A stretch of DNA of 64,000 nucleotides, from assembly GCA_963771175.1 (NCBI GenBank), contig CAVYSY010000032.1:256001-320000 (forward strand), given 5' to 3'. Positions 34,177 to 41,942 of the stretch are shown one piece after another (the stretch's first letter is position 1; the number at the start of each line of letters is the position of its first letter). The translations under genes and the position numbers were made by a program. The notes below the pieces were generated by a model. The model saw only the letters and a list, made by a program, of their open reading frames with translations. It was not told where the DNA came from and searched no databases. This DNA comes from an uncultured delta proteobacterium. Lineage in GTDB: Bacteria > Myxococcota > Myxococcia > Myxococcales > Myxococcaceae.

Positions 34177-34935
34177 ATGCGCATCCTCTCCGCATTGACG
34201 CTGCTGCTGCTCTCCACCCCGACGCTCGCCGAGGAGACCCGCGTGGTGGTGCGGGCCCGCGCCCATGACGGCAAGTTCGTGGGCACCTCCATGGGCGGTG
34301 CCCAGGTGGTGCTCCGCGATGCCGAAACCGGCCAGGAGCTCGCCCGCGGCGTCACCGCTGGCACCACCGGCGACACCCAGCGGCTGATGAAGCAGCCGCA
34401 CGCCCGCGGCATGCAGCTCGCCGATGAGAAGAGCGCGAAGTTCGAGACGACGCTCGAGCTCGACGAGCCCCGACTGGTAACGGTGGAGGTGTCCGGCCCC
34501 GAGGCCCAGCGGCAGTCCCGCATCACCAGCTCCACCCAGGTCTGGATGATTCCGGGCAAGCACCTCACTGGCGACGGCATCATCCTGGAGCTTCCGGGCT
34601 TCGTGGTGGATGCGCTCGAGCCCCGAGCCCACGAATTCATCAAGCTCGACGGCAAGAAGCAGAACGTCCCCGTCCGGGCCAACCTCGTGCTGATGTGCGG
34701 CTGCCCCACCGAGCCGGGTGGCCTCTGGGACTCCAGCAAGTACGAGCTGCGGGCCGTGGTGAAGCGCGACGGCAAGCCCTTCACCACCGTGCCCCTCACC
34801 TACGCCGGGAAGACGAGCGCCTACGAGGGCCAGATTCCCGTCCAGGAGAAGGGGGCCTACGAGGTCCTCGTCACCGCGTACGACCCGAATACCGGCAACA
34901 CCGGCGTGGACCGCACCACCTTCCTCGTCGAGTAG
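34177..34935 (+). CDS. Secreted hypothetical protein
   Basis: Signal peptide; DGKFVGTSMGGA and MCGCP motifs; GC3-rich codons. Confidence 0.75.
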   Translation: MRILSALTLLLLSTPTLAEETRVVVRARAHDGKFVGTSMGGAQVVLRDAETGQELARGVTAGTTGDTQRLMKQPHARGMQLADEKSAKFETTLELDEPRLVTVEVSGPEAQRQSRITSSTQVWMIPGKHLTGDGIILELPGFVVDALEPRAHEFIKLDGKKQNVPVRANLVLMCGCPTEPGGLWDSSKYELRAVVKRDGKPFTTVPLTYAGKTSAYEGQIPVQEKGAYEVLVTAYDPNTGNTGVDRTTFLVE

Positions 34936-34939
34936 CCGT

Positions 34940-35837
34940 CTACTCCACCTGCGAGCTCGCTCGGGATGGAGGCGTGGAGCTCCAAGCGCTTCCCCGTGAG
35001 CGGATGCACGAAGCACAACCGCTCCGCGTGCAGCAGGTAGCCGGTATCCCCGAGCAGTCCCGGATGCTCGGCGCGCGGCACGCCTCCCACGGCATAGACG
35101 GGATCTCCTTCGAGCGGATGCCCGATGAAGGCCAGGTGGATGCGGATCTGCTGGGAGCGACCCGTCTGGATGTCCACCTCGAAGAGGGTGCTCGCCGCGC
35201 GCCGCTGGAGCACTCGCGCCAGGCTCCGGGACGCCTTCCCGCCTGGAGTCGCCATGGGGACCATGCCCATGCCCGGATGCACCGCCTCGCCGATGGGCGC
35301 GGTGATGTCGTAGAAGTCCTGGGTGGCCACGTGGCTCGCCAGGGCCCGGTAGCGCTTCTCCACCTCGTGCTCGCGCCAGGCGCGGGACAGCTTCGCCGCC
35401 GCGTCGTGCGTGCGCGCGAAGAGCACGAGGCCCGAGGTGCCGCGTCCCAGCCGATGCAGGGGGCTCGCCTCCGGGAAGCGCTCCCGCACGAGGTTGAGCA
35501 GGGTGTTCACGAGGAAGCCTCCACCCGGCATCGTGGGCAGGCCTCCCGGTTTGATGACCGCCAGGATCGCCTCGTCCTCGTGCACGAGTGAGTAGTCTCG
35601 CGGCGTCTCCTTCTCTTCCCAGGGCGGCCGGTTCCAGACGAGCCACTGGCCGGCTTTCAGACGCTCCTCACCCGTCGCGGCGATGTCATCCAACAGGACC
35701 TCGCCCCGGGCGAGCCGCTCCCGCCACACCGCGCTCGGGGAGTGCCTGTAGGCGTCGACCAGATAGGAGAGCGTGCTCTGTCCCCGCGCCCGGGCGCCCA
35801 GCTGCTCGCGGTAGGCATAGCCCGTATTGAGTGCCAT
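34940..35837 (-). CDS. RluA-family RNA pseudouridine synthase (3' end inferred)
   Basis: KPGGLP, HRLGRGTSG (G in place of the usual catalytic D), TGRSQQIRIHL, HPLEGDPVY, LHA. Confidence 0.8.
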
Positions 35838-36058
35838 GCCGCTACCCCCTCTCGAAGAGGCGGAAGAAGTCCCAGGGGGCGCGCTTCTTGCGCGGACAGC
35901 GCGTGGCATCTCCTGCTCGTAACACCGTCACCTCGCACTGCTCGGGGGGCTGGATCATCCCACGCGGGGCGCGGACCTTCCAGGCCCCAGAGCTCGTGAC
36001 CCGAACCGCGGCCCTGGCAGGCTGCGCCCCAAGTAGGCTGCACGAAGGGCCCAGCGCA

Positions 36059-37846
36059 TCAAGAGCTGGCGTGACCGAAGCGGGTGGCGTCCTCCGTGTT
36101 CTCGATGGTGATGCCCAGTTCATCCCGGAGCACCTCCATCAAGTCAGGCCGCAAGCGGATGGTGCCCTGGCGCAAGCGGTGATTGAGCGAGAGATCCGCA
36201 CTGGAGAGTCTCCGTGCCGGGTGGGAGCGCTGGAGCAACGCATTGATCTGGCGCTGAGCACCTTCCAGGACGCGAAGCGCTGAACGCTCGATCGCCAGGA
36301 ACTCCGCGACGGCGTCCGCCACGGCGTCGAGGACGTCTCTCCGGGCCCCCGAGGGAGAGCCCGCGCGCGAGTGGATCAACTCCCGGAGTCGCAGGCGGGC
36401 ATTCCCATCCACCTCATCCCTCGTGGGGGTGAACGCGTCCCGCAGATGAAGCAGCGAGTCCTCTCGGAAACCCCTCAGGCCGCGCTGGACGCGCGCGTAC
36501 AGCTCGCTGTAGGCGGCCTCGGCCCAGACTCGCGGGGCGGAGTGGTGCAATCCAGAGTTCATCAGGATCATCTGCCAATCGCGCTCGACATGCTCGCGCA
36601 GCCGGCCCAGGACGCCACCCGGCTCATCCTCCACCTCGAGAAGCGCCGCGTGAATCATTTCGTAGGCGCGGCACATATAGCTCCAACGGTTGGACTGGAC
36701 AGCATAGAGCTGGAGCCCGAGCAGCCCGTAATCCATCGCCGCGGGGATCTCCGCATCCCACGCCGCCGTGGGGATGGGAGCACCCGTCACGGGCTTGCCA
36801 TCCATCAGCGTCGCGAGGAACTCCTCCACCATGTGCGGGGGACCGGCGCAGACGCCGCGAGTCGACAGGAAGTGGTTGCCCTGTTCGGTGTAGCGGTACA
36901 GCTCGGCCGCCGTGATGGGCGTGTCGTACGTAATCGAACTCTCCAGGAGCAGGAGCAGATAGGACGCCATCATCCGCACGCCGTCCGTCACCCGGAACAT
37001 GGAGGACAGCACGGGATCCAGCGTGCCGTTGGGGACGGGGGCGTTCGCGCGCATCAGCAACAGGCTCGGCAGGGCCAGCACGGCACAGGACAGGGCGTGA
37101 AGATCCCCCAGCCGCCAGCGCCCGTCTGGGAGCAGGGGATGGCGGCGCAGGAACTCCTCGCGAACCGCGAGCACCCCCCGCAGCACGGGCTTCCAGTGCC
37201 GCGTCATCGACTTGAGCGCCGTCACGTTCATCGGCGCCTCGTCCCGATAGCGGCTGCCCGGATAGGGACACACCCGCCACTCCGTCGGAAGCTTCATGCG
37301 CATGGCGTCGGGGAAGACGTTCATCTCCCCGACATGGCGTCCCTCCGCGTCGAGCGCCGGGTGGGCGATGCGATGCACCGGGATCACCGTTTCGAGGAAG
37401 CCCAACTCCAGCGGCCGCCCCTCCAACCGCTCCATCACCTGAGGACAATCCGGGTTCCACCACAGGGGCTCGCTGGGGGCTTCCCGCCGAGCCTCGGCCT
37501 CCAGGAATCTTTGATGCGAGTGACTCTCGGAAGGTGGCTTCGGGGCCTCGCGCGAGAGGATGCCCTCGGCCAACAGGGCCTCGAGCAACTCCCTCACGCG
37601 CTCCCAGGGGTAGGGCTCACCCGAGCTCCACCCGGTGGCGCTGGCCGCCATGAACTGGTCCTGCGTGAGCAGCGTCTCGCCAAAGGAGAGCAGGTCCGGC
37701 TCATCGAGCGTGATCTCCTTGACGCCAAAGAAGATGTGCAGCTCCCTGTTTCCCTCGGGGGTGGTCACGTACTCGCGCGTGGAGCGACGCCTCAGGGGCA
37801 AGTACAGCGTCTCATGGGGATCAACCGACACGGCTTCCTGACTCAT
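36059..37846 (-). CDS. 595-aa protein of unrecognised family; candidate RiPP maturase with N-terminal wHTH/RRE-like segment
   Basis: Intact ORF with GGAG RBS; N-terminal region ends WERVRELLEALLAEGIL; directly downstream of a peptide gene. Confidence 0.7.
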   Translation of the reverse strand: MSQEAVSVDPHETLYLPLRRRSTREYVTTPEGNRELHIFFGVKEITLDEPDLLSFGETLLTQDQFMAASATGWSSGEPYPWERVRELLEALLAEGILSREAPKPPSESHSHQRFLEAEARREAPSEPLWWNPDCPQVMERLEGRPLELGFLETVIPVHRIAHPALDAEGRHVGEMNVFPDAMRMKLPTEWRVCPYPGSRYRDEAPMNVTALKSMTRHWKPVLRGVLAVREEFLRRHPLLPDGRWRLGDLHALSCAVLALPSLLLMRANAPVPNGTLDPVLSSMFRVTDGVRMMASYLLLLLESSITYDTPITAAELYRYTEQGNHFLSTRGVCAGPPHMVEEFLATLMDGKPVTGAPIPTAAWDAEIPAAMDYGLLGLQLYAVQSNRWSYMCRAYEMIHAALLEVEDEPGGVLGRLREHVERDWQMILMNSGLHHSAPRVWAEAAYSELYARVQRGLRGFREDSLLHLRDAFTPTRDEVDGNARLRLRELIHSRAGSPSGARRDVLDAVADAVAEFLAIERSALRVLEGAQRQINALLQRSHPARRLSSADLSLNHRLRQGTIRLRPDLMEVLRDELGITIENTEDATRFGHASS

Positions 37847-37996
37847 GCGAGGGCTCCTGGGAGCAAGCCCGGGATGTTCAGGCGCGGAGGGGCTGCTCCA
37901 TACGGGTGGGGTTCTCCTTTGGGCTGAGCACTGGGCGCGGCCTTGTGATTCGCGTCACTTCCGGACGTCCTGCTGGGAGGACAAGCGGGCTGCCCA

Positions 37997-38042
37997 CAAA
38001 AACACAGTCGCCAGCAGGCGGCGCACCGCCCACTGGCGACTG
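37997..38042 (-). terminator. Stem-loop after the peptide gene (terminator or mRNA stabiliser)
   Basis: CAGTCGCCAG/CTGGCGACTG 10-bp stem with inner GGCGG/CCGCC, followed on the minus strand by TGTTTTT. Confidence 0.7.
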
Positions 38043-38065
38043 GAATCCAACGCGTCTGCGTCTAC

Positions 38066-38155
38066 CTACGCCAGCTGGTAGCTGCGGCAACCGCCGCCGA
38101 GGCTGATCGTATAAACGCTGGCCAGACCGCCACGAATGTTGGTCTTGATCTTCAT
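38066..38155 (-). CDS. 29-aa putative RiPP precursor peptide (not in ORF track)
   Basis: MKIKTNIRGGLASVYTISLGGGCRSYQLA*; GAGGAG SD 7 nt before the ATG; hairpin just after the stop. Confidence 0.75.
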   Translation of the reverse strand: MKIKTNIRGGLASVYTISLGGGCRSYQLA

Positions 38156-38305
38156 GTGCTCGCTCCTCGTTCGTACTGCGTTTCATCCGGACTGAGTACG
38201 GAGCGACGCGTTTGTGCTTCTGCTTCGAGTTCTTTTCGACAGGCCTGCCAGGAGGACGAGCAGGCAGCCCTGTCGGAGCAGTGAAGTGGGCCCCCCCAGG
38301 CTCCC

Positions 38306-39166
38306 CTACAGCCCGGAGGCGTCCGCGAACTGGAGCAGTTCCGACAGCAGCTCGTCTGGCCGTTCCACATGCGGAATGTGGCCGAAGCCATCCACCACCC
38401 TCACCCGCGCATGGCCCGGCAGGTGCGAGCGGAAGAAATCCAGGCTCTGGAGGGGCAGCAACTTCTCACTCCCGCCCCACACGAACAGCACCGGCATGGC
38501 GAGCGCCTTGAGCACCTCGGGCTTGAGGTACTCGCCCGTGGCCAGCGCGTCCTCGCTTAGCGCGCGCACCGCGGGGGTGGCGTAGATGCCGCGCACCATG
38601 TCGGCGAACAGCATCATCAGCCAGGGCGGACGGTGGAAGAGGCGCCGGGTGAGCGCGCGAGACTGTTCGGCAGTGCGCACATTCATGGCCTCCAGCACCT
38701 CGCGGATGGGCTCGTGCCCCACATCCGCTCCCGCCGGCGCCACCAGCCCCAGGGCCTTCACCAACTCCGGGTGCTCCGCCGAGAGCTGCACCGACATGGC
38801 CCCGCCCAGCGAGTTGCCCACCACGAAGGCCGGCCCGCCCACCACCTTCCGGCAGTACTCCACCAGCATGTCGTACTGGCCGCGCACGCACGTCGGCCCG
38901 AGGCAGTACTCCGGCGAGAAGCCATGCCCCGGCAGGTCCACCGCCAGCACCCTCTCGAAGCGCTTGGAAAGCCCGAAGAAGAGGCGCGCGAAGCCGTTGG
39001 CCGCTCCGCCCAGCCCGTGCACCAGCAGCACCGGCGGACCCTTGCCGCTCCCCTTCAGCTCGTAGTGGTGGAGCGGCTGACCGGCCACGTCCACCAGCGC
39101 CGACCGCACCCCGCGCGCCACCAGCATGCGGCGGGTCATCTCTTGGAGGCCTGAAATGAGATCCAC
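38306..39166 (-). CDS. Alpha/beta hydrolase
   Basis: VHGLGG, DLPGHG, GNSLGG nucleophile elbow, GHIPH. Confidence 0.88.
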   Translation of the reverse strand: MDLISGLQEMTRRMLVARGVRSALVDVAGQPLHHYELKGSGKGPPVLLVHGLGGAANGFARLFFGLSKRFERVLAVDLPGHGFSPEYCLGPTCVRGQYDMLVEYCRKVVGGPAFVVGNSLGGAMSVQLSAEHPELVKALGLVAPAGADVGHEPIREVLEAMNVRTAEQSRALTRRLFHRPPWLMMLFADMVRGIYATPAVRALSEDALATGEYLKPEVLKALAMPVLFVWGGSEKLLPLQSLDFFRSHLPGHARVRVVDGFGHIPHVERPDELLSELLQFADASGL

Positions 39167-39205
39167 GGCCTGGAGATTAATCATCCCCATGCCGCACCGC
39201 ATCAA

Positions 39206-40351
39206 TTAGCGCGCGGCAGCCAGCCAGGGGGCCGGATCCACGGCCTGCCCGGCCCGGCGAATCTCGAAATACAGGTAGGCGCCCTTGAGGGAGCCCGTGT
39301 CACCCACCTCGCCCACCACCTCGCCGGCCGTCACCTGGGCTCCCACCTGGGGAGTGACGGAGGCCAGGTGCGCCACCAGCGAGTGGTAGCCGCCCCCATG
39401 GTCCAGGATGAGCAGGTTGCCGTAGCCGCGCAGCCAGCCCGCATAGGCCACGGTGCCCTCCGCCACCGCCTTCACCGGCGTGCCCACGGGCGCGCGGATG
39501 TCCACGCCCTTCTGCACGGTGACGGTGTTGAAGCGCGGGTTCACCACCTTGCCGAAGCCCACCTCGATGACGCCCGGCGCGGGGAACGGCAGCTTGCCCT
39601 TGAGCGCCCCGAAGCCGGATGTGGCCGGGCCCTCGTTCAGGTCCTGGATGACGCGGCTGAGGTCCGCGTCCGCCAGCTCCAGCTCGCGCACCATGCGCCG
39701 CGCCAGCTCGGCCTCGCCCTTGATGGCGCCCACCACCTCCTCCAGCGCCTCCTGCTGCGCCTTCGCCAGCCCCGCCTGCTCCCGCAGGAAGCCGAGCCGC
39801 ACGTCCAGCGAGCCCTGCAGTCGACGCAGCTCGGCCGCCGCCTGGCGCCGCAGTCGCGCCACCCGCTGCACCGTGCGCAGCAGCCGCAGGTCCTCCTCCA
39901 GCGTCGCCCGCAGCGCCCGCGAGCGCCACACCATGGCGGAGAAGTCCCTCGCGCTCAGCAGCACCTCCAGGGGCCGGCGCCGCATCATCCGGTACATGCC
40001 CCACAGCCGCGGCGACAGCCGGCGCATCTGCGTGCGCAGCATCTGCTGCGTCAACGCGTCCTCCTGCTCGGCCACGGCCAGCCGCTTGCGGAAGACGGCC
40101 AGGTCCCGCTCCAGCACCTTCACCCGCTGCGAGCTGGTGGCCGCCCGCTGCTCCACCATCTCCAGCACCTCGAGCGCGGACACCTTGCGCGACTCGATGA
40201 GCGCGAGCGCCGCCCGCTGCGTGGCCAGCCTCTCGCGGATGGCCGCCTGCTGCGACGCCTCGTCCAGCGCGGACGGCTGCGCCTCGGCCCCGTCCTGCGC
40301 GAGGGCCGCCGCACCACACAGCAGCAGTGAGAGGAGGACGAGCCGGCTCAT
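39206..40351 (-). CDS. envC: EnvC-like murein hydrolase activator (coiled coil plus degenerate M23)
   Basis: QKGVDIRA, GYGNLLILDHG, LYFEIR; follows ftsEX. Confidence 0.85.
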   Translation of the reverse strand: MSRLVLLSLLLCGAAALAQDGAEAQPSALDEASQQAAIRERLATQRAALALIESRKVSALEVLEMVEQRAATSSQRVKVLERDLAVFRKRLAVAEQEDALTQQMLRTQMRRLSPRLWGMYRMMRRRPLEVLLSARDFSAMVWRSRALRATLEEDLRLLRTVQRVARLRRQAAAELRRLQGSLDVRLGFLREQAGLAKAQQEALEEVVGAIKGEAELARRMVRELELADADLSRVIQDLNEGPATSGFGALKGKLPFPAPGVIEVGFGKVVNPRFNTVTVQKGVDIRAPVGTPVKAVAEGTVAYAGWLRGYGNLLILDHGGGYHSLVAHLASVTPQVGAQVTAGEVVGEVGDTGSLKGAYLYFEIRRAGQAVDPAPWLAAAR

Positions 40352-41250
40352 ACCCGCAGGAATCGCCCCACCGCGATGAAGCTGCCGCCCAGCCCCAGCG
40401 CGCAGCCCGCCACCAGCAGCTCCAGGGCGATCCTCGGCTCCAGCAGCGGCACCATGCCTCCGGGCCCCACCAGGAAGGAGAACAGTGACGCCAGCCCCGG
40501 CCCCACCAGCCGCTCGAAGGTCAGCAGGGCCGCCAGCGCCACCACGGCCCCGAGCAGCCCCTGCAGGAAGCCCTCGATGAGGAAGGGCGCCTTGACGAAG
40601 CGGTCCGTCGCGCCCACCAGCTTCTGGATTTCAATCTCCCCGCGCCGCGCGTAGATGGCGAGCTGGAGCGTCGCGGAGACGATGACCACCGTGGCCAGCA
40701 GCACCACCGCGAAGGCGATCCATCCGCCGTAGCGTAGCGCCTTCGAGATGGCCGACAGCCGCTCCACCGCCTCCTCGCCGTAGTCCACGCCGGTGACACC
40801 GGGCATGGTGCGCAGCTCCTGCGCGAGCGCCTTCAGCTCGCCGGGCGTGCGCCGCTCCGAGGGCACCTCCAGCTCCAACGAGGGCGGCAGCGGGTTCTCC
40901 GGCAGGTGCGTCAGCGCTTCGCCCAGGTCGCCCAGCTCACGCTCGAGGCGCTCGAGCGCCACTTGAGGAGGCACCAGCGTGGCCCGGCCTCCGCTGGTGG
41001 TTTCCATCCGCTCGCGCAGCACCGCGGCGCCCTCCTCGTCGAGCTCGGGCGACAGGTACACCGTCACCTGCACCTCGCCGCCCAGCGAACCGAGCAGCCC
41101 ATCCACCATCCGTCCCACGGCCTGTGCCAGCCCCGCGGAGAAGAGGGCGATGGCGATGGTGGTCACCGCGATGAAGTGGATGAAGGGCGCGTGCCGCAGG
41201 CCCGAGGCCGCCGAGCGCCAGAAGTAGGCCGCCTTCGCCAGCGCGCTCAT
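40348..41250 (-). CDS. ftsX: Cell division permease FtsX
   Basis: ENPLP, RRGEIEIQKLVGAT, PFLIEG. Confidence 0.92.
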   Translation of the reverse strand: MSALAKAAYFWRSAASGLRHAPFIHFIAVTTIAIALFSAGLAQAVGRMVDGLLGSLGGEVQVTVYLSPELDEEGAAVLRERMETTSGGRATLVPPQVALERLERELGDLGEALTHLPENPLPPSLELEVPSERRTPGELKALAQELRTMPGVTGVDYGEEAVERLSAISKALRYGGWIAFAVVLLATVVIVSATLQLAIYARRGEIEIQKLVGATDRFVKAPFLIEGFLQGLLGAVVALAALLTFERLVGPGLASLFSFLVGPGGMVPLLEPRIALELLVAGCALGLGGSFIAVGRFLRV

Positions 41251-41942
41251 CCCGCCGCCATCCGCCGGGCGGCCTTCACGCCGTCCTCGTCCGAAACGAT
41301 CATCCCCCGCTCCAGCCGCAGGGTGCGCTTCTGGTAGCGGGTGATGAGGCTGGTGTCGTGGGTGGCCACCATCACCGTGGTGCCGCGCACGTTCACGTCC
41401 ATCAGCAGGTCCATGATCTCCAGCGTGAGCGCCGGGTCCAGGTTCCCCGTGGGCTCGTCCGCCAGGAGGATGGTGGGATCGTTCACGAGCGCCCGGGCGA
41501 TGACGACGCGCTGCTGCTCACCACCCGAGAGCTTCAGCGGCAGGGAGTCCGCCTTGTGCTGCAGGCCCACCAGCTTGAGCATGCGCTGCACGCGATCGCG
41601 CGCCTCGGCGCGGGGCACCCCGAGCACGTCCAGGGCGAAGGCCACGTTGTCGGACACCGTGCGGTGCGGCAGCAGCTTGAAGTCCTGGAACACCACGCCG
41701 ACGTTGCGGCGCAGATAGGGGATGGCCGACTCGCGGATGCGCGCGATGTTGCGCCCCCCCACGAGCACCTGTCCCTTGGTGGCCTTCTCCGCGCAGAAGA
41801 TGAGCTTCATGAGCGTCGTCTTCCCCGCGCCCGAGGGCCCGGTGAGGAAGACGAACTCGCCCTTCTCCACATGGAGGTTGATGTCCGAGAGGACGGGCGG
41901 ATCCCCGGGGTACGCCTTGTAGACGTGGAACATCTGAATCAT
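41247..41942 (-). CDS. ftsE: Cell division ATP-binding protein FtsE
   Basis: [32 protein letters not shown]. Confidence 0.95.

Follow-up and report, generated by a model that had tools for sequence, protein, structure and literature searches.

Classes of peptides that the ribosome makes and that are modified after translation (RiPPs) take their definition from the maturase, and with each new fold of maturase have come new peptide chemistry and new tools for engineering. As a kind of system, the maturation and export of peptides under the guidance of a leader is already known. The described systems closest to the locus considered here are double-glycine-leader RiPPs and bacteriocins exported by C39-peptidase ATP-binding cassette (ABC) transporters, in particular the NHLP/Nif11 peptides with their 'NHLM' export set (an ABC transporter with a peptidase, a second without one, and an HlyD adaptor), the maturases that depend on a RiPP recognition element (RRE), such as PqqD, LynD/TruD, McbB, TbtB/MibB and lasso B1, and the MNIO (DUF692) systems, such as methanobactin MbnBC, the bufferins BufBC, ChrH and TglHI. 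According to PMC13056109, which deals with ChrH-type systems and not with the present family, MNIO enzymes remodel Cys in Gram-negative RiPPs. Here we describe a cassette in a 64,000-nucleotide stretch of DNA, hereafter the window, from an uncultured, Archangium-like delta proteobacterium of the Myxococcaceae (assembly GCA_963771175.1, contig CAVYSY010000032.1, positions 256,001 to 320,000). It comprises a short open reading frame (ORF) for a 29-residue peptide, a strong stem-loop and a gene for a 595-residue protein, and the best explanation for it is that it encodes the precursor and the maturase of a RiPP-like family not described before. Four things about this family appear to be new: the maturase family, the fold of the maturase, the leader of 10 residues and the Cys-centered core. 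No description of the family was found in the open full-text literature (subscription papers and bioRxiv supplements were outside reach), and no name for it exists in Pfam (2025), in NCBIfam (June 2026) or in the source annotations seen.

An earlier reading of the window, made from its letters alone (the sequence-only reading), had picked out a micro-ORF with a GAGGAG Shine-Dalgarno (SD) motif, the stem-loop and an intact, co-oriented 595-residue gene, all of which are present in the sequence. It had also predicted that homologs of the large protein would be flanked by ORFs with a K-x-K-T-x-(I/V)-(R/K)-(G/A)-G leader. A species-representative genome collection was scanned for relatives of the large protein, and the best 80 of 154 confirmed matches gave 76 loci (numbered from L001) in Myxococcota, Beta-, Gamma- and Alphaproteobacteria, Acidobacteriota and bins labeled Planctomycetota and Nitrospira. 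The prediction held in 64 of these 76 loci, which contain co-oriented small ORFs with the common leader M-K-I-K-T-x-V-R-[G/A]-G and are spread over Myxococcota, Pseudomonadota, Acidobacteriota and one bin labeled Planctomycetota. A strict form of the motif, K-[IVL]-K-[TS]-x-[IVL]-[RK]-[GA]-G, searched in six frames, is found in the window and in 49 loci, with every match on the strand of the large gene and an ATG start in all but one (TTG). In the 818,587 bases of the related loci this motif has 89 matches in the real sequence and none in the reversed sequence; because of this difference, and because every genuine match lies on the strand of the neighboring large gene, a chance ORF is excluded on sequence grounds. 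A looser motif that includes a start codon adds 17 matches in 12 more loci, all on the plus strand, and variant leaders occur in L036 and L050. In L001 the start of the contig cuts the orthologous peptide ORF, which is counted among the 64. Half of the 12 peptide-less loci are short or truncated contigs (L047, L064, L065, L066, L069 and L072).

Peptide anatomy was described from the 118 loose-motif matches. These lie on the plus strand in 115 cases; two of the three on the minus strand sit just downstream of a minus-strand paralogue in L020, and the third is a regex artefact containing a stop. An SD-like motif precedes 111 of the ORFs, and the predicted peptides are 15 to 61 residues long, with a median of 29. 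The leader takes the form M-K-I-K-T-[N/K]-[V/I]-R-[A/G]-G, with its positions conserved at 89-100% (M1 in 118, K2 in 107, I/V3 in 117, K4 in 105, T5 in 105, V/I/L7 in 116, R8 in 113, A/G9 in 114 and G10 in 116), whereas the cores are variable. Gly at position 10, Ala or Gly at position 9 and Val, Ile or Leu at position -4 (116, 114 and 116 of the 118, respectively) agree with the pattern of double-glycine leaders, which have G-G, G-A or A-G at -2/-1 and a hydrophobic residue at -4. Exactly one Cys is found in the core of 104 matches, and two or three in 8. The last Cys is preceded by Arg in 46 cases, by Gly in 22 and by Ala in 11, and it is followed by Gly in 37 and by Val in 26. In an alignment of 16 close relatives of the window peptide, Cys23 is at least 90% conserved and the rest of the core varies. 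The sequence-only reading had listed Ser, Thr, Tyr and Cys as modifiable core residues; conservation singles out the Cys, and the Ser, Thr and Tyr are not conserved.

The cores fall into types that differ between lineages. That of the window is G-G-x-C-R-x-Y near the end of the peptide; R-G-C-G-G-G is seen in other Archangiaceae. In many Myxococcales the core is very short, for example x-x-C-x-R, and in Proteobacteria and Acidobacteria a hydrophilic spacer leads to P-P-V-[S/G]-R-C-[V/A/T]-G-[I/L], nearly invariant, at the C-terminus. The window peptide, with its basic residues, a mildly hydrophobic stretch and then G-G-G-C, could be taken for a lipoprotein-type signal peptide processed by the general Lgt/Lsp pathway and not by the neighboring protein, and RiPP-lipoprotein hybrids are described in PMC13056109. 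This explanation is very improbable: a canonical lipobox is absent, with Leu at -4 and not at -3, and most members lack both a lipobox and a hydrophobic core; many family members have three to four residues, or a long hydrophilic Ser/Thr/Asn/Gly spacer, between Gly-Gly and Cys, with no hydrophobic core; and the associated exporters are C39 ABC transporters, not Sec/Lsp. A profile built from 20 proteobacterial peptides found 867 small proteins at E<=10 in a set of 5.8 billion proteins, the best 120 of them at E<=4e-13, and no informative name was found among these matches. Neither the window peptide nor nine further peptides scanned match a Pfam or NCBIfam precursor model.

The order of peptide gene first and large gene second, which the sequence-only reading described, is that of the window; family-wide, the peptide gene is usually downstream (84 downstream against 23 upstream, with 11 unplaced where the crude gene caller missed the large gene) and often in tandem, with up to eight differing copies in L062. 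This distribution bears on the idea that the micro-ORF is a regulatory upstream leader peptide without a product of its own and the hairpin an attenuator of the 595-residue gene. The window taken alone would suit it, as the micro-ORF there precedes the large gene and has a strong terminator-like hairpin behind it. Against it stand the downstream majority and the tandem arrays, together with the pattern of conservation, in which the N-terminus is the conserved part and the Cys-containing C-terminal motif is kept across phyla; nor does it leave any place for the association of the peptides with exporters. We regard it as barely credible.

Relatives of the 595-residue protein are numerous. Among 8000 scored candidates, 711 matched at E<=0.001, and among representatives of clusters at 50% identity 761 matched at this threshold, 126 of them at E<=1e-30; wherever the source gives a name, it is 'hypothetical protein'. 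The closest relative is 88% identical and that of L001 87%, and the family is present in cultured strains of Archangium, Vitiosangium, Myxococcus and Corallococcus and in Steroidobacter gossypii, Ramlibacter monticola and Rhodoferax lacus, with two or three paralogues in several Archangium and Vitiosangium genomes. For the window protein, no Pfam family was found at E<=1, NCBIfam gave only a noise match (E 0.2), and searches of PDB sequences by phmmer or with a 57-sequence profile gave nothing credible. Pfam and NCBIfam thereby agree with the sequence-only reading, which had recognized no LanB/C/M, YcaO, radical SAM or P450 signature; a known non-RiPP family, which that reading had kept in view, was likewise not matched by Pfam, NCBIfam, the PDB profile or Foldseek.

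An alignment of 57 diverse sequences, down to 29% identity, contains 13 invariant positions (W73, L91, E152, R170, G173, E174, C193, G197, M214, W218, G335, Y373 and R540) and about 40 further positions conserved at 90% or more, including H162, D166, N176, R199, N207, R285, D288, R291 and the segment G-V-C333-A-G-P. At least eight conserved residues are Arg. C333 lies in a strand-G-V-C-A-G-P-helix turn which, by pattern alone, is like a nucleophile elbow. Among seven longer representatives of the family, three have a C-terminal MTS methyltransferase domain with DUF7059, one has GNAT at its N-terminus and the remaining three carry nothing further; fused forms of more than 1043 residues were looked for and not found. 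These features have to be set against the alternative that the peptides are unmodified double-glycine bacteriocins or pheromones and that the 595-residue protein is a non-enzymatic accessory, for example an immunity protein, an export chaperone that hands over the leader, or a regulator. Such a role would explain a protein with no recognizable catalytic family or cofactor motif; export machinery alone is enough for a peptide of class-II type, and histidine kinase and response regulator genes occur near 13 and 5 of the 76 loci. The invariant and near-invariant residues are, however, polar in many cases (Cys, His, Asp, Glu and Arg) and are a better fit to an active site than to a chaperone surface. 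The methyltransferase and GNAT fusions, the conserved Cys of the peptide and the lack, on our own reading, of membrane or signal features in the model of the protein also argue against an accessory, and we consider this alternative unlikely.

The AlphaFold2 model of the 595-residue protein, built with the 57-sequence alignment, has a mean pLDDT of 93.3 and a pTM of 0.91. Residues 13-94 form short strands followed by three helices, and a weakly conserved linker (residues ~96-130) leads to a large, mostly helical body with very long helices at 362-402 and 500-537 and a small C-terminal hairpin. With the full model, Foldseek found no match at E<=0.001 in the PDB or BFVD, its sole local match being to the winged-helix domain of ribosomal oxygenases; the ESM Atlas gave only sub-0.9 leads to winged-helix clusters for the whole protein, and nothing for residues 125-595. 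The N-terminal 113 residues modeled alone have a pLDDT of 80.9. RiPP maturases or isolated RREs make up 15 of the 45 Foldseek matches listed for this domain, all at E>1e-3 (McbBCD, LynD, TruD, TbtB, ThcOx, MibB, PqqD, the PbtF RRE, lasso B1 and TbiB1), and the larger maturases among them presumably contain RREs. Four small entries, taken as RRE-only by their descriptions, have TMt values of 0.53 (5sxy, PqqD), 0.54 (8t19, PbtF RRE), 0.48 (5v1u, TbiB1) and 0.39 (6jx3, lasso B1). RREs consist of a three-stranded sheet and then three helices; the modeled domain has strands and then three helices. The domain also holds four nearly invariant acidic residues (E44, D48, E49 and E57). On the evidence of these models, the N-terminal ~95 residues weakly resemble RREs.

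A quick maximum-likelihood tree was calculated for 67 full-length relatives, the truncated genes of L010, L026, L027, L047, L064, L065, L069, L071, L072 and L075 being left out. The window protein groups with L001 within a group of nine rows (SH-aLRT 89, not starred); eight of these have the G-x-C-R-x-Y core, and the ninth is L001, whose peptide the motif script missed because the contig begins inside it. Nine core labels require 21 changes on the tree, compared with a mean of 43.1 after shuffling, and none of 200 shuffles gave a value as low. Core type in these sequences follows enzyme clade in a descriptive sense; since relatives share labels, the agreement is no proof of co-evolution. The same tracking of peptide type and protein clade might be expected of an RRNPP-like receptor-pheromone cassette, in which the 595-residue protein, acting in the cytoplasm as a receptor or as a transcription factor, would sense the mature peptide after its re-import. 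Two features suit this idea: the winged helix at the N-terminus, and the gene order in most of the family, a large helical protein with the peptide gene just downstream and co-oriented (84 of 118 cases), which such cassettes usually have. The Foldseek PDB matches, though, include neither a TPR protein nor an RRNPP receptor (0 at E<=0.001), and Pfam finds neither the TPR repeats nor the HTH domain of such receptors. Invariant polar residues would be unexpected in a pocket that co-varies with very different peptides, and up to eight differing tandem peptides beside one protein, as well as the fusions to tailoring enzymes in some relatives, fit such a receptor poorly. A receptor-pheromone cassette is accordingly quite improbable.

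The gene content of the related loci supplies the remaining parts of a peptide pathway. The ORFs of all loci were clustered and representatives annotated by Pfam (Table 1). A C39 domain stands at the start of 20 of the 23 ABC ORFs longer than 850 residues, each of the 20 in a different locus; the other three are over-extended ORF calls. The C39 domains look active, because the peptidase motifs Q-T-S-x-M-D-C-G-P-A, H-F-[VI]-V-[VI]-W and D-P-A are intact. By NCBIfam the transporters are nearest the NHLP bacteriocin export models, which are among their best matches. The scores of the ABC and HlyD proteins (45-202 bits) fall far under the equivalog cut-offs (156-853 bits), for example 202 against 853 bits. 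Like the NHLM set, related loci have two tandem ABC genes, one with an intact C39 domain, together with HlyD and an outer-membrane channel, and both systems have tandem precursors with a conserved leader and variable cores, the leader ending in G-G/A-G with a hydrophobic residue at -4. They differ in that the NHLP/Nif11 leaders, of about 70-80 residues, are much longer than the leader of 10 residues found here, in that the present peptides match no NCBIfam or Pfam precursor model, and in that the partner enzyme is not LanM, YcaO or radical SAM.

Judged by these neighborhoods, the two-gene system proposed by the sequence-only reading does not hold for the family as a whole, which also takes in an exporter, an adaptor, an outer-membrane channel and two-component regulators and, now and then, tailoring enzymes. 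One locus with the core subtype of the window (L010) carries a peptidase-containing ABC transporter (PCAT) gene and HlyD. Neither an ABC/PCAT-like gene nor HlyD is found in 7 of the other 16 Archangiaceae loci; the window and these seven therefore fit an arrangement in which several paralogous pairs would share one export locus per genome. Separate methyltransferase genes are present in L053, L061 and L063 (of which L061 was Pfam-scanned), and S8 subtilase genes in L028, L030 and L031 (of which L028 and L030 were Pfam-scanned).

On this evidence we favor, and hold to be probable, the reading that the leader guides the peptide to a maturase of new fold, which works on the conserved Cys or close to it, and that an exporter encoded elsewhere cuts the leader after Gly-Gly. 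The three checks named in the sequence-only reading (peptide ORFs beside homologs, a known non-RiPP family, an RRE-like N-terminus) all turned out in its favor, the last of them at sub-threshold Foldseek scores. Its logic is that of a RiPP pathway because the family combines a conserved short leader with a variable core, tandem precursors, an RRE-like domain in the partner protein, a peptidase-exporter set, occasional tailoring enzymes and lineage-specific pairs of enzyme and core. The 29-residue peptide would be translated from its own SD, given the ORF, the SD motif and the conservation across phyla that are observed, and the hairpin after its gene probably keeps peptide transcripts above maturase transcripts. 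The basic leader (K2, K4 and R8) would dock as a strand on the acidic winged-helix domain (E44, D48, E49 and E57), as the resemblance to the RRE fold and the complementarity of charge suggest. The helical domain would then modify the core at or next to the Cys, its only conserved residue, which is usually flanked by Arg and Gly. The product would be exported and its leader cut after R-[G/A]-G by the C39 ABC exporter, with a second ABC subunit, HlyD and the outer-membrane channel; this set is observed beside relatives, and the window pair would rely on one located in another part of its genome. Indirect support for cleavage after Gly-Gly comes from the intact C39 ABC exporters predicted in at least 20 related loci. 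Outside the cell the peptide may act as a bacteriocin or a signal; histidine kinase genes at 13 loci and LuxR-type regulators at 5 hint at peptide-controlled regulation.

A number of observations weigh against this reading. No match at E<=0.001 was found for the N-terminal domain in the PDB by Foldseek (best E 3.1e-3); the top matches, above the RREs, are winged helices of ribosomal oxygenases, which account for 13 of the 45 matches listed (best 2xdv, E 3.1e-3, TMq 0.57), and TM-scores are ~0.45-0.57. Pfam finds no PF05402 (PqqD) match in the 595-residue protein, and its presumed catalytic domain is without a known fold, both of which set it apart from the RRE-dependent maturases. As for the winged helix-turn-helix RRE that the sequence-only reading had in mind, the models show in the first ~95 residues a winged-helix fold resembling an RRE at sub-threshold Foldseek scores, and Pfam gives no match. 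The known RiPP maturase families (LanB/C/M/KC, YcaO, radical SAM, P450, ATP-grasp and MNIO) have no Pfam, NCBIfam or fold match to the protein, in which Pfam, NCBIfam, profile and Foldseek searches also reveal no cofactor or catalytic motif of a known enzyme family. The leader, at only 10 residues, is far shorter than classical double-glycine or RRE-bound leaders, and its position -7 is Lys, Gln or Arg in all 118 matches and not hydrophobic; in the consensus for C39-cleaved leaders, which are ~15-25 residues long, positions -7, -12 and -15 are hydrophobic. Six of the 118 peptide matches have no Cys, and six loci with full flanks (L025, L029, L068, L074, L075 and L076) have no such peptide. Finally, the sequence-only reading was correct that the pair has no dedicated transporter or peptidase gene, and a tblastn search of the whole 64-kb window found no C39 exporter or HlyD gene either, its sole match being a weak one to FtsE.

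As to the reaction, the conserved C193, C333, H162, D166, E152 and E174 and the eight or more conserved Arg residues would suit a thiol- or metal-based site at which an anionic co-substrate is bound as well. Among the conceivable reactions, an alkyl- or acyl-type transfer to the sulfur of the Cys is tentatively ranked first, at low probability, followed by backbone chemistry at the Cys, considered because its Gly-rich flanks recall azoline-forming substrates, and by redox chemistry. Zinc-dependent thiol-alkylating enzymes with all-helical folds include the LanC cyclases and the beta subunit of protein farnesyltransferase. A possible likeness to these lies in a helical enzyme with a conserved Cys/Cys/His/Asp candidate metal site and many Arg and aromatic residues and, for farnesyltransferase, in the spacing most common among the peptides, which places the Cys three residues before the C-terminal end in the manner of a CaaX box (31 of the 112 Cys-containing matches). 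The differences are that there is no structural or sequence similarity, that the distance of the Cys from the peptide end ranges from 0 to 37 residues and that no dehydratase is available to supply a Michael acceptor. With the MNIO systems the family shares a single conserved Cys as the apparent target, short Gram-negative peptides, MauG/MbnH-like di-heme peroxidase genes beside 6 of the 76 loci and an occurrence in methanotroph bins. It differs from them in that neither Pfam nor Foldseek gives a DUF692/TIM-barrel match to the 595-residue protein, in the lack of an MbnC-like partner, and in precursors with a double-glycine leader in place of a Sec or lipoprotein signal peptide.

Two more specific ideas about the product were dropped: a strict CaaX box, in view of the variable distance of the Cys from the peptide end, and a thiolactone to the C-terminus, as some peptides end in Cys.

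It is quite possible, if short of probable, that the 595-residue protein is the first of a new superfamily of maturases, having a fold that the PDB does not contain and a previously unknown leader-guided reaction on a single Cys, and with it of a new RiPP class in soil and freshwater Gram-negative bacteria (Myxococcota, Beta-, Gamma- and Alphaproteobacteria and Acidobacteriota). The products might be thiol-derivatized secreted signals or bacteriocins, which myxobacteria would have expanded into several paralogous peptide-enzyme pairs per genome. The candidate family is large, counting 761 clusters of proteins at 50% identity and clusters of peptides in the hundreds, and the candidate system is simple, since a very short leader is joined by a single conserved target residue and a single enzyme. 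If 10 residues of leader did suffice for recognition as well as export, the system would be unusually compact for peptide engineering. Should one of the rival explanations be true, the family would still represent a new and widespread peptide export or signaling module in Gram-negative bacteria.

Table 1. Features of the cassette in the window and genes found in related loci.
Feature	Position	Strand	Loci (of 76)	Basis or remark
Peptide ORF, 29 codons including the ATG at 38155	38066..38155	minus		product MKIKTNIRGGLASVYTISLGGGCRSYQLA
SD-like GAGGAG	38163..38168	minus		7 nt before the peptide ATG, read in the sequence
Leader, peptide residues 1-10, MKIKTNIRGG, Gly-Gly end	38126..38155	minus		motif conservation in 118 matches
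Core, peptide residues 11-29, LASVYTISLGGGCRSYQLA, single conserved Cys23	38069..38125	minus		
Peptide stop codon	38066..38068	minus		
Terminator-like hairpin and T-run between peptide gene and large gene	37995..38042	minus		
Conserved non-coding stretch before the large gene, including AGGAG	37847..37985	minus		DNA alignment of window, L001, L018 and L003
595-residue ORF, intact, co-oriented	36059..37846	minus		AGGAG 8 nt before the ATG
RRE-like winged-helix domain, residues ~12-95, four strands then three helices	37562..37813	minus		AlphaFold models
Mostly alpha-helical domain without a known fold, residues ~130-595, presumed catalytic	36062..37459	minus		conservation and model
ABC transporter-like/PCAT-like genes			36	often two in tandem; count may take in unrelated ABC genes, compare FtsE in the window
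HlyD adaptor			25	
NodT/TolC-type outer-membrane protein (OEP)			15	
Histidine kinase			13	
LuxR-type response regulator			5	
MauG-like di-heme peroxidase			6	directly upstream, co-oriented

The hairpin between the two genes of the window starts 23 bases past the peptide stop and consists of a 17-pair stem with a 4-nt loop (38042..38005), followed by TGTTTTTGTG. Its minimum free energy (MFE) is -41.7 kcal/mol, with a z-score of -3.98 from 200 shuffles. In a DNA alignment the base of the stem, GTCGCCAG...CTGGCGAC, and the T-run are kept in L001, L018 and L003, and the changes fall inside the stem. Across the family, the 70 nt after the peptide gene have an MFE of -27.2 kcal/mol, against -24.1 kcal/mol in control windows, and 69% of cases lie below their control (Wilcoxon p 0.0018), so that for the family as a whole such a hairpin is only a weak trait. 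In the four Archangiaceae loci aligned (the window, L001, L018 and L003), the ~130 nt that separate the hairpin from the ATG of the large gene are strongly conserved, with long invariant runs. This stretch could be a promoter, a 5' leader RNA or an upstream ORF. No sigma-70-like promoter was found within it, and no Rfam match over 35500..38800. It contains a 7-codon mini-ORF, MEQPLRA in the window, which is preserved in L001, with synonymous changes, and lacks a start codon in L018. In the L001 ortholog of the peptide gene itself the frame and stop are kept, and 6 of 14 changed codons, counted from the alignment, are synonymous.

Several peptides and loci depart from the common pattern. In methanotroph bins (Crenothrix and Methylococcaceae), upstream peptides with the same leader have a Cys-free core rich in His, Asp and Arg with repeated D-D-A-P-x-H (L031 5715-5828, L059 5631-5735 and L071 142-246); L031 also has a normal Cys-type peptide downstream. 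The Cys-free peptides may represent a variant that binds metal, or else another substrate for the same enzyme. In peptides of Sphaerotilaceae an early R-C comes before very long poly-Gly tracts, of up to 26 Gly in L042, and some are without the C-terminal Cys motif (L042 7839-7997, L054 7882-8016, L073 4656-4778 and L053 7876-8061). In L022 (1325-7791) and L070 (1454-7869), three tandem paralogues of the large gene have differing short-core peptides between and after them, forming compact arrays of paired enzyme and peptide genes, followed by HlyD. The di-heme peroxidase/MauG-like genes (Pfam CCP_MauG) lie directly upstream of the large gene in L015, L016, L033, L038, L056 and L069, and a second di-heme group (Pfam DHOR) is found in L012, L013 and L015, at about 1216-2699; the enzymes of both groups are candidates for a periplasmic oxidative tailoring step. 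L055, from the Planctomycetota-labeled bin, is virtually identical to L057, from an Ectothiorhodospiraceae bin, with tree branch lengths of 0 and 0.0015. This near-identity suggests a binning error or a very recent transfer, and the occurrence in Planctomycetota is therefore unreliable. L034 and L062, both from Sphingomonadales bins, are also near-identical.

The cassette looks like an insertion between housekeeping genes and not like a segment of some bigger biosynthetic island. Its upstream neighbors, which share its strand, are genes for an alpha/beta hydrolase (38306..39205), an M23 peptidase, FtsX and FtsE, the M23 label being a Pfam match and the FtsX and FtsE labels a reading of the translations with a weak ABC match; the cell-division cluster, at 39206..41942 on the minus strand, immediately adjoins the cassette. 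Downstream are an RluA-type pseudouridine synthase gene (34857..35909) and genes for a Sel1 protein and an S41 protease. A 252-residue ORF at 34177..34935 on the plus strand, convergent with the RluA-like gene, has a signal-peptide-like N-terminus and no Pfam family and is overlapped by long spurious antisense ORFs of the kind typical of the high-GC DNA here.

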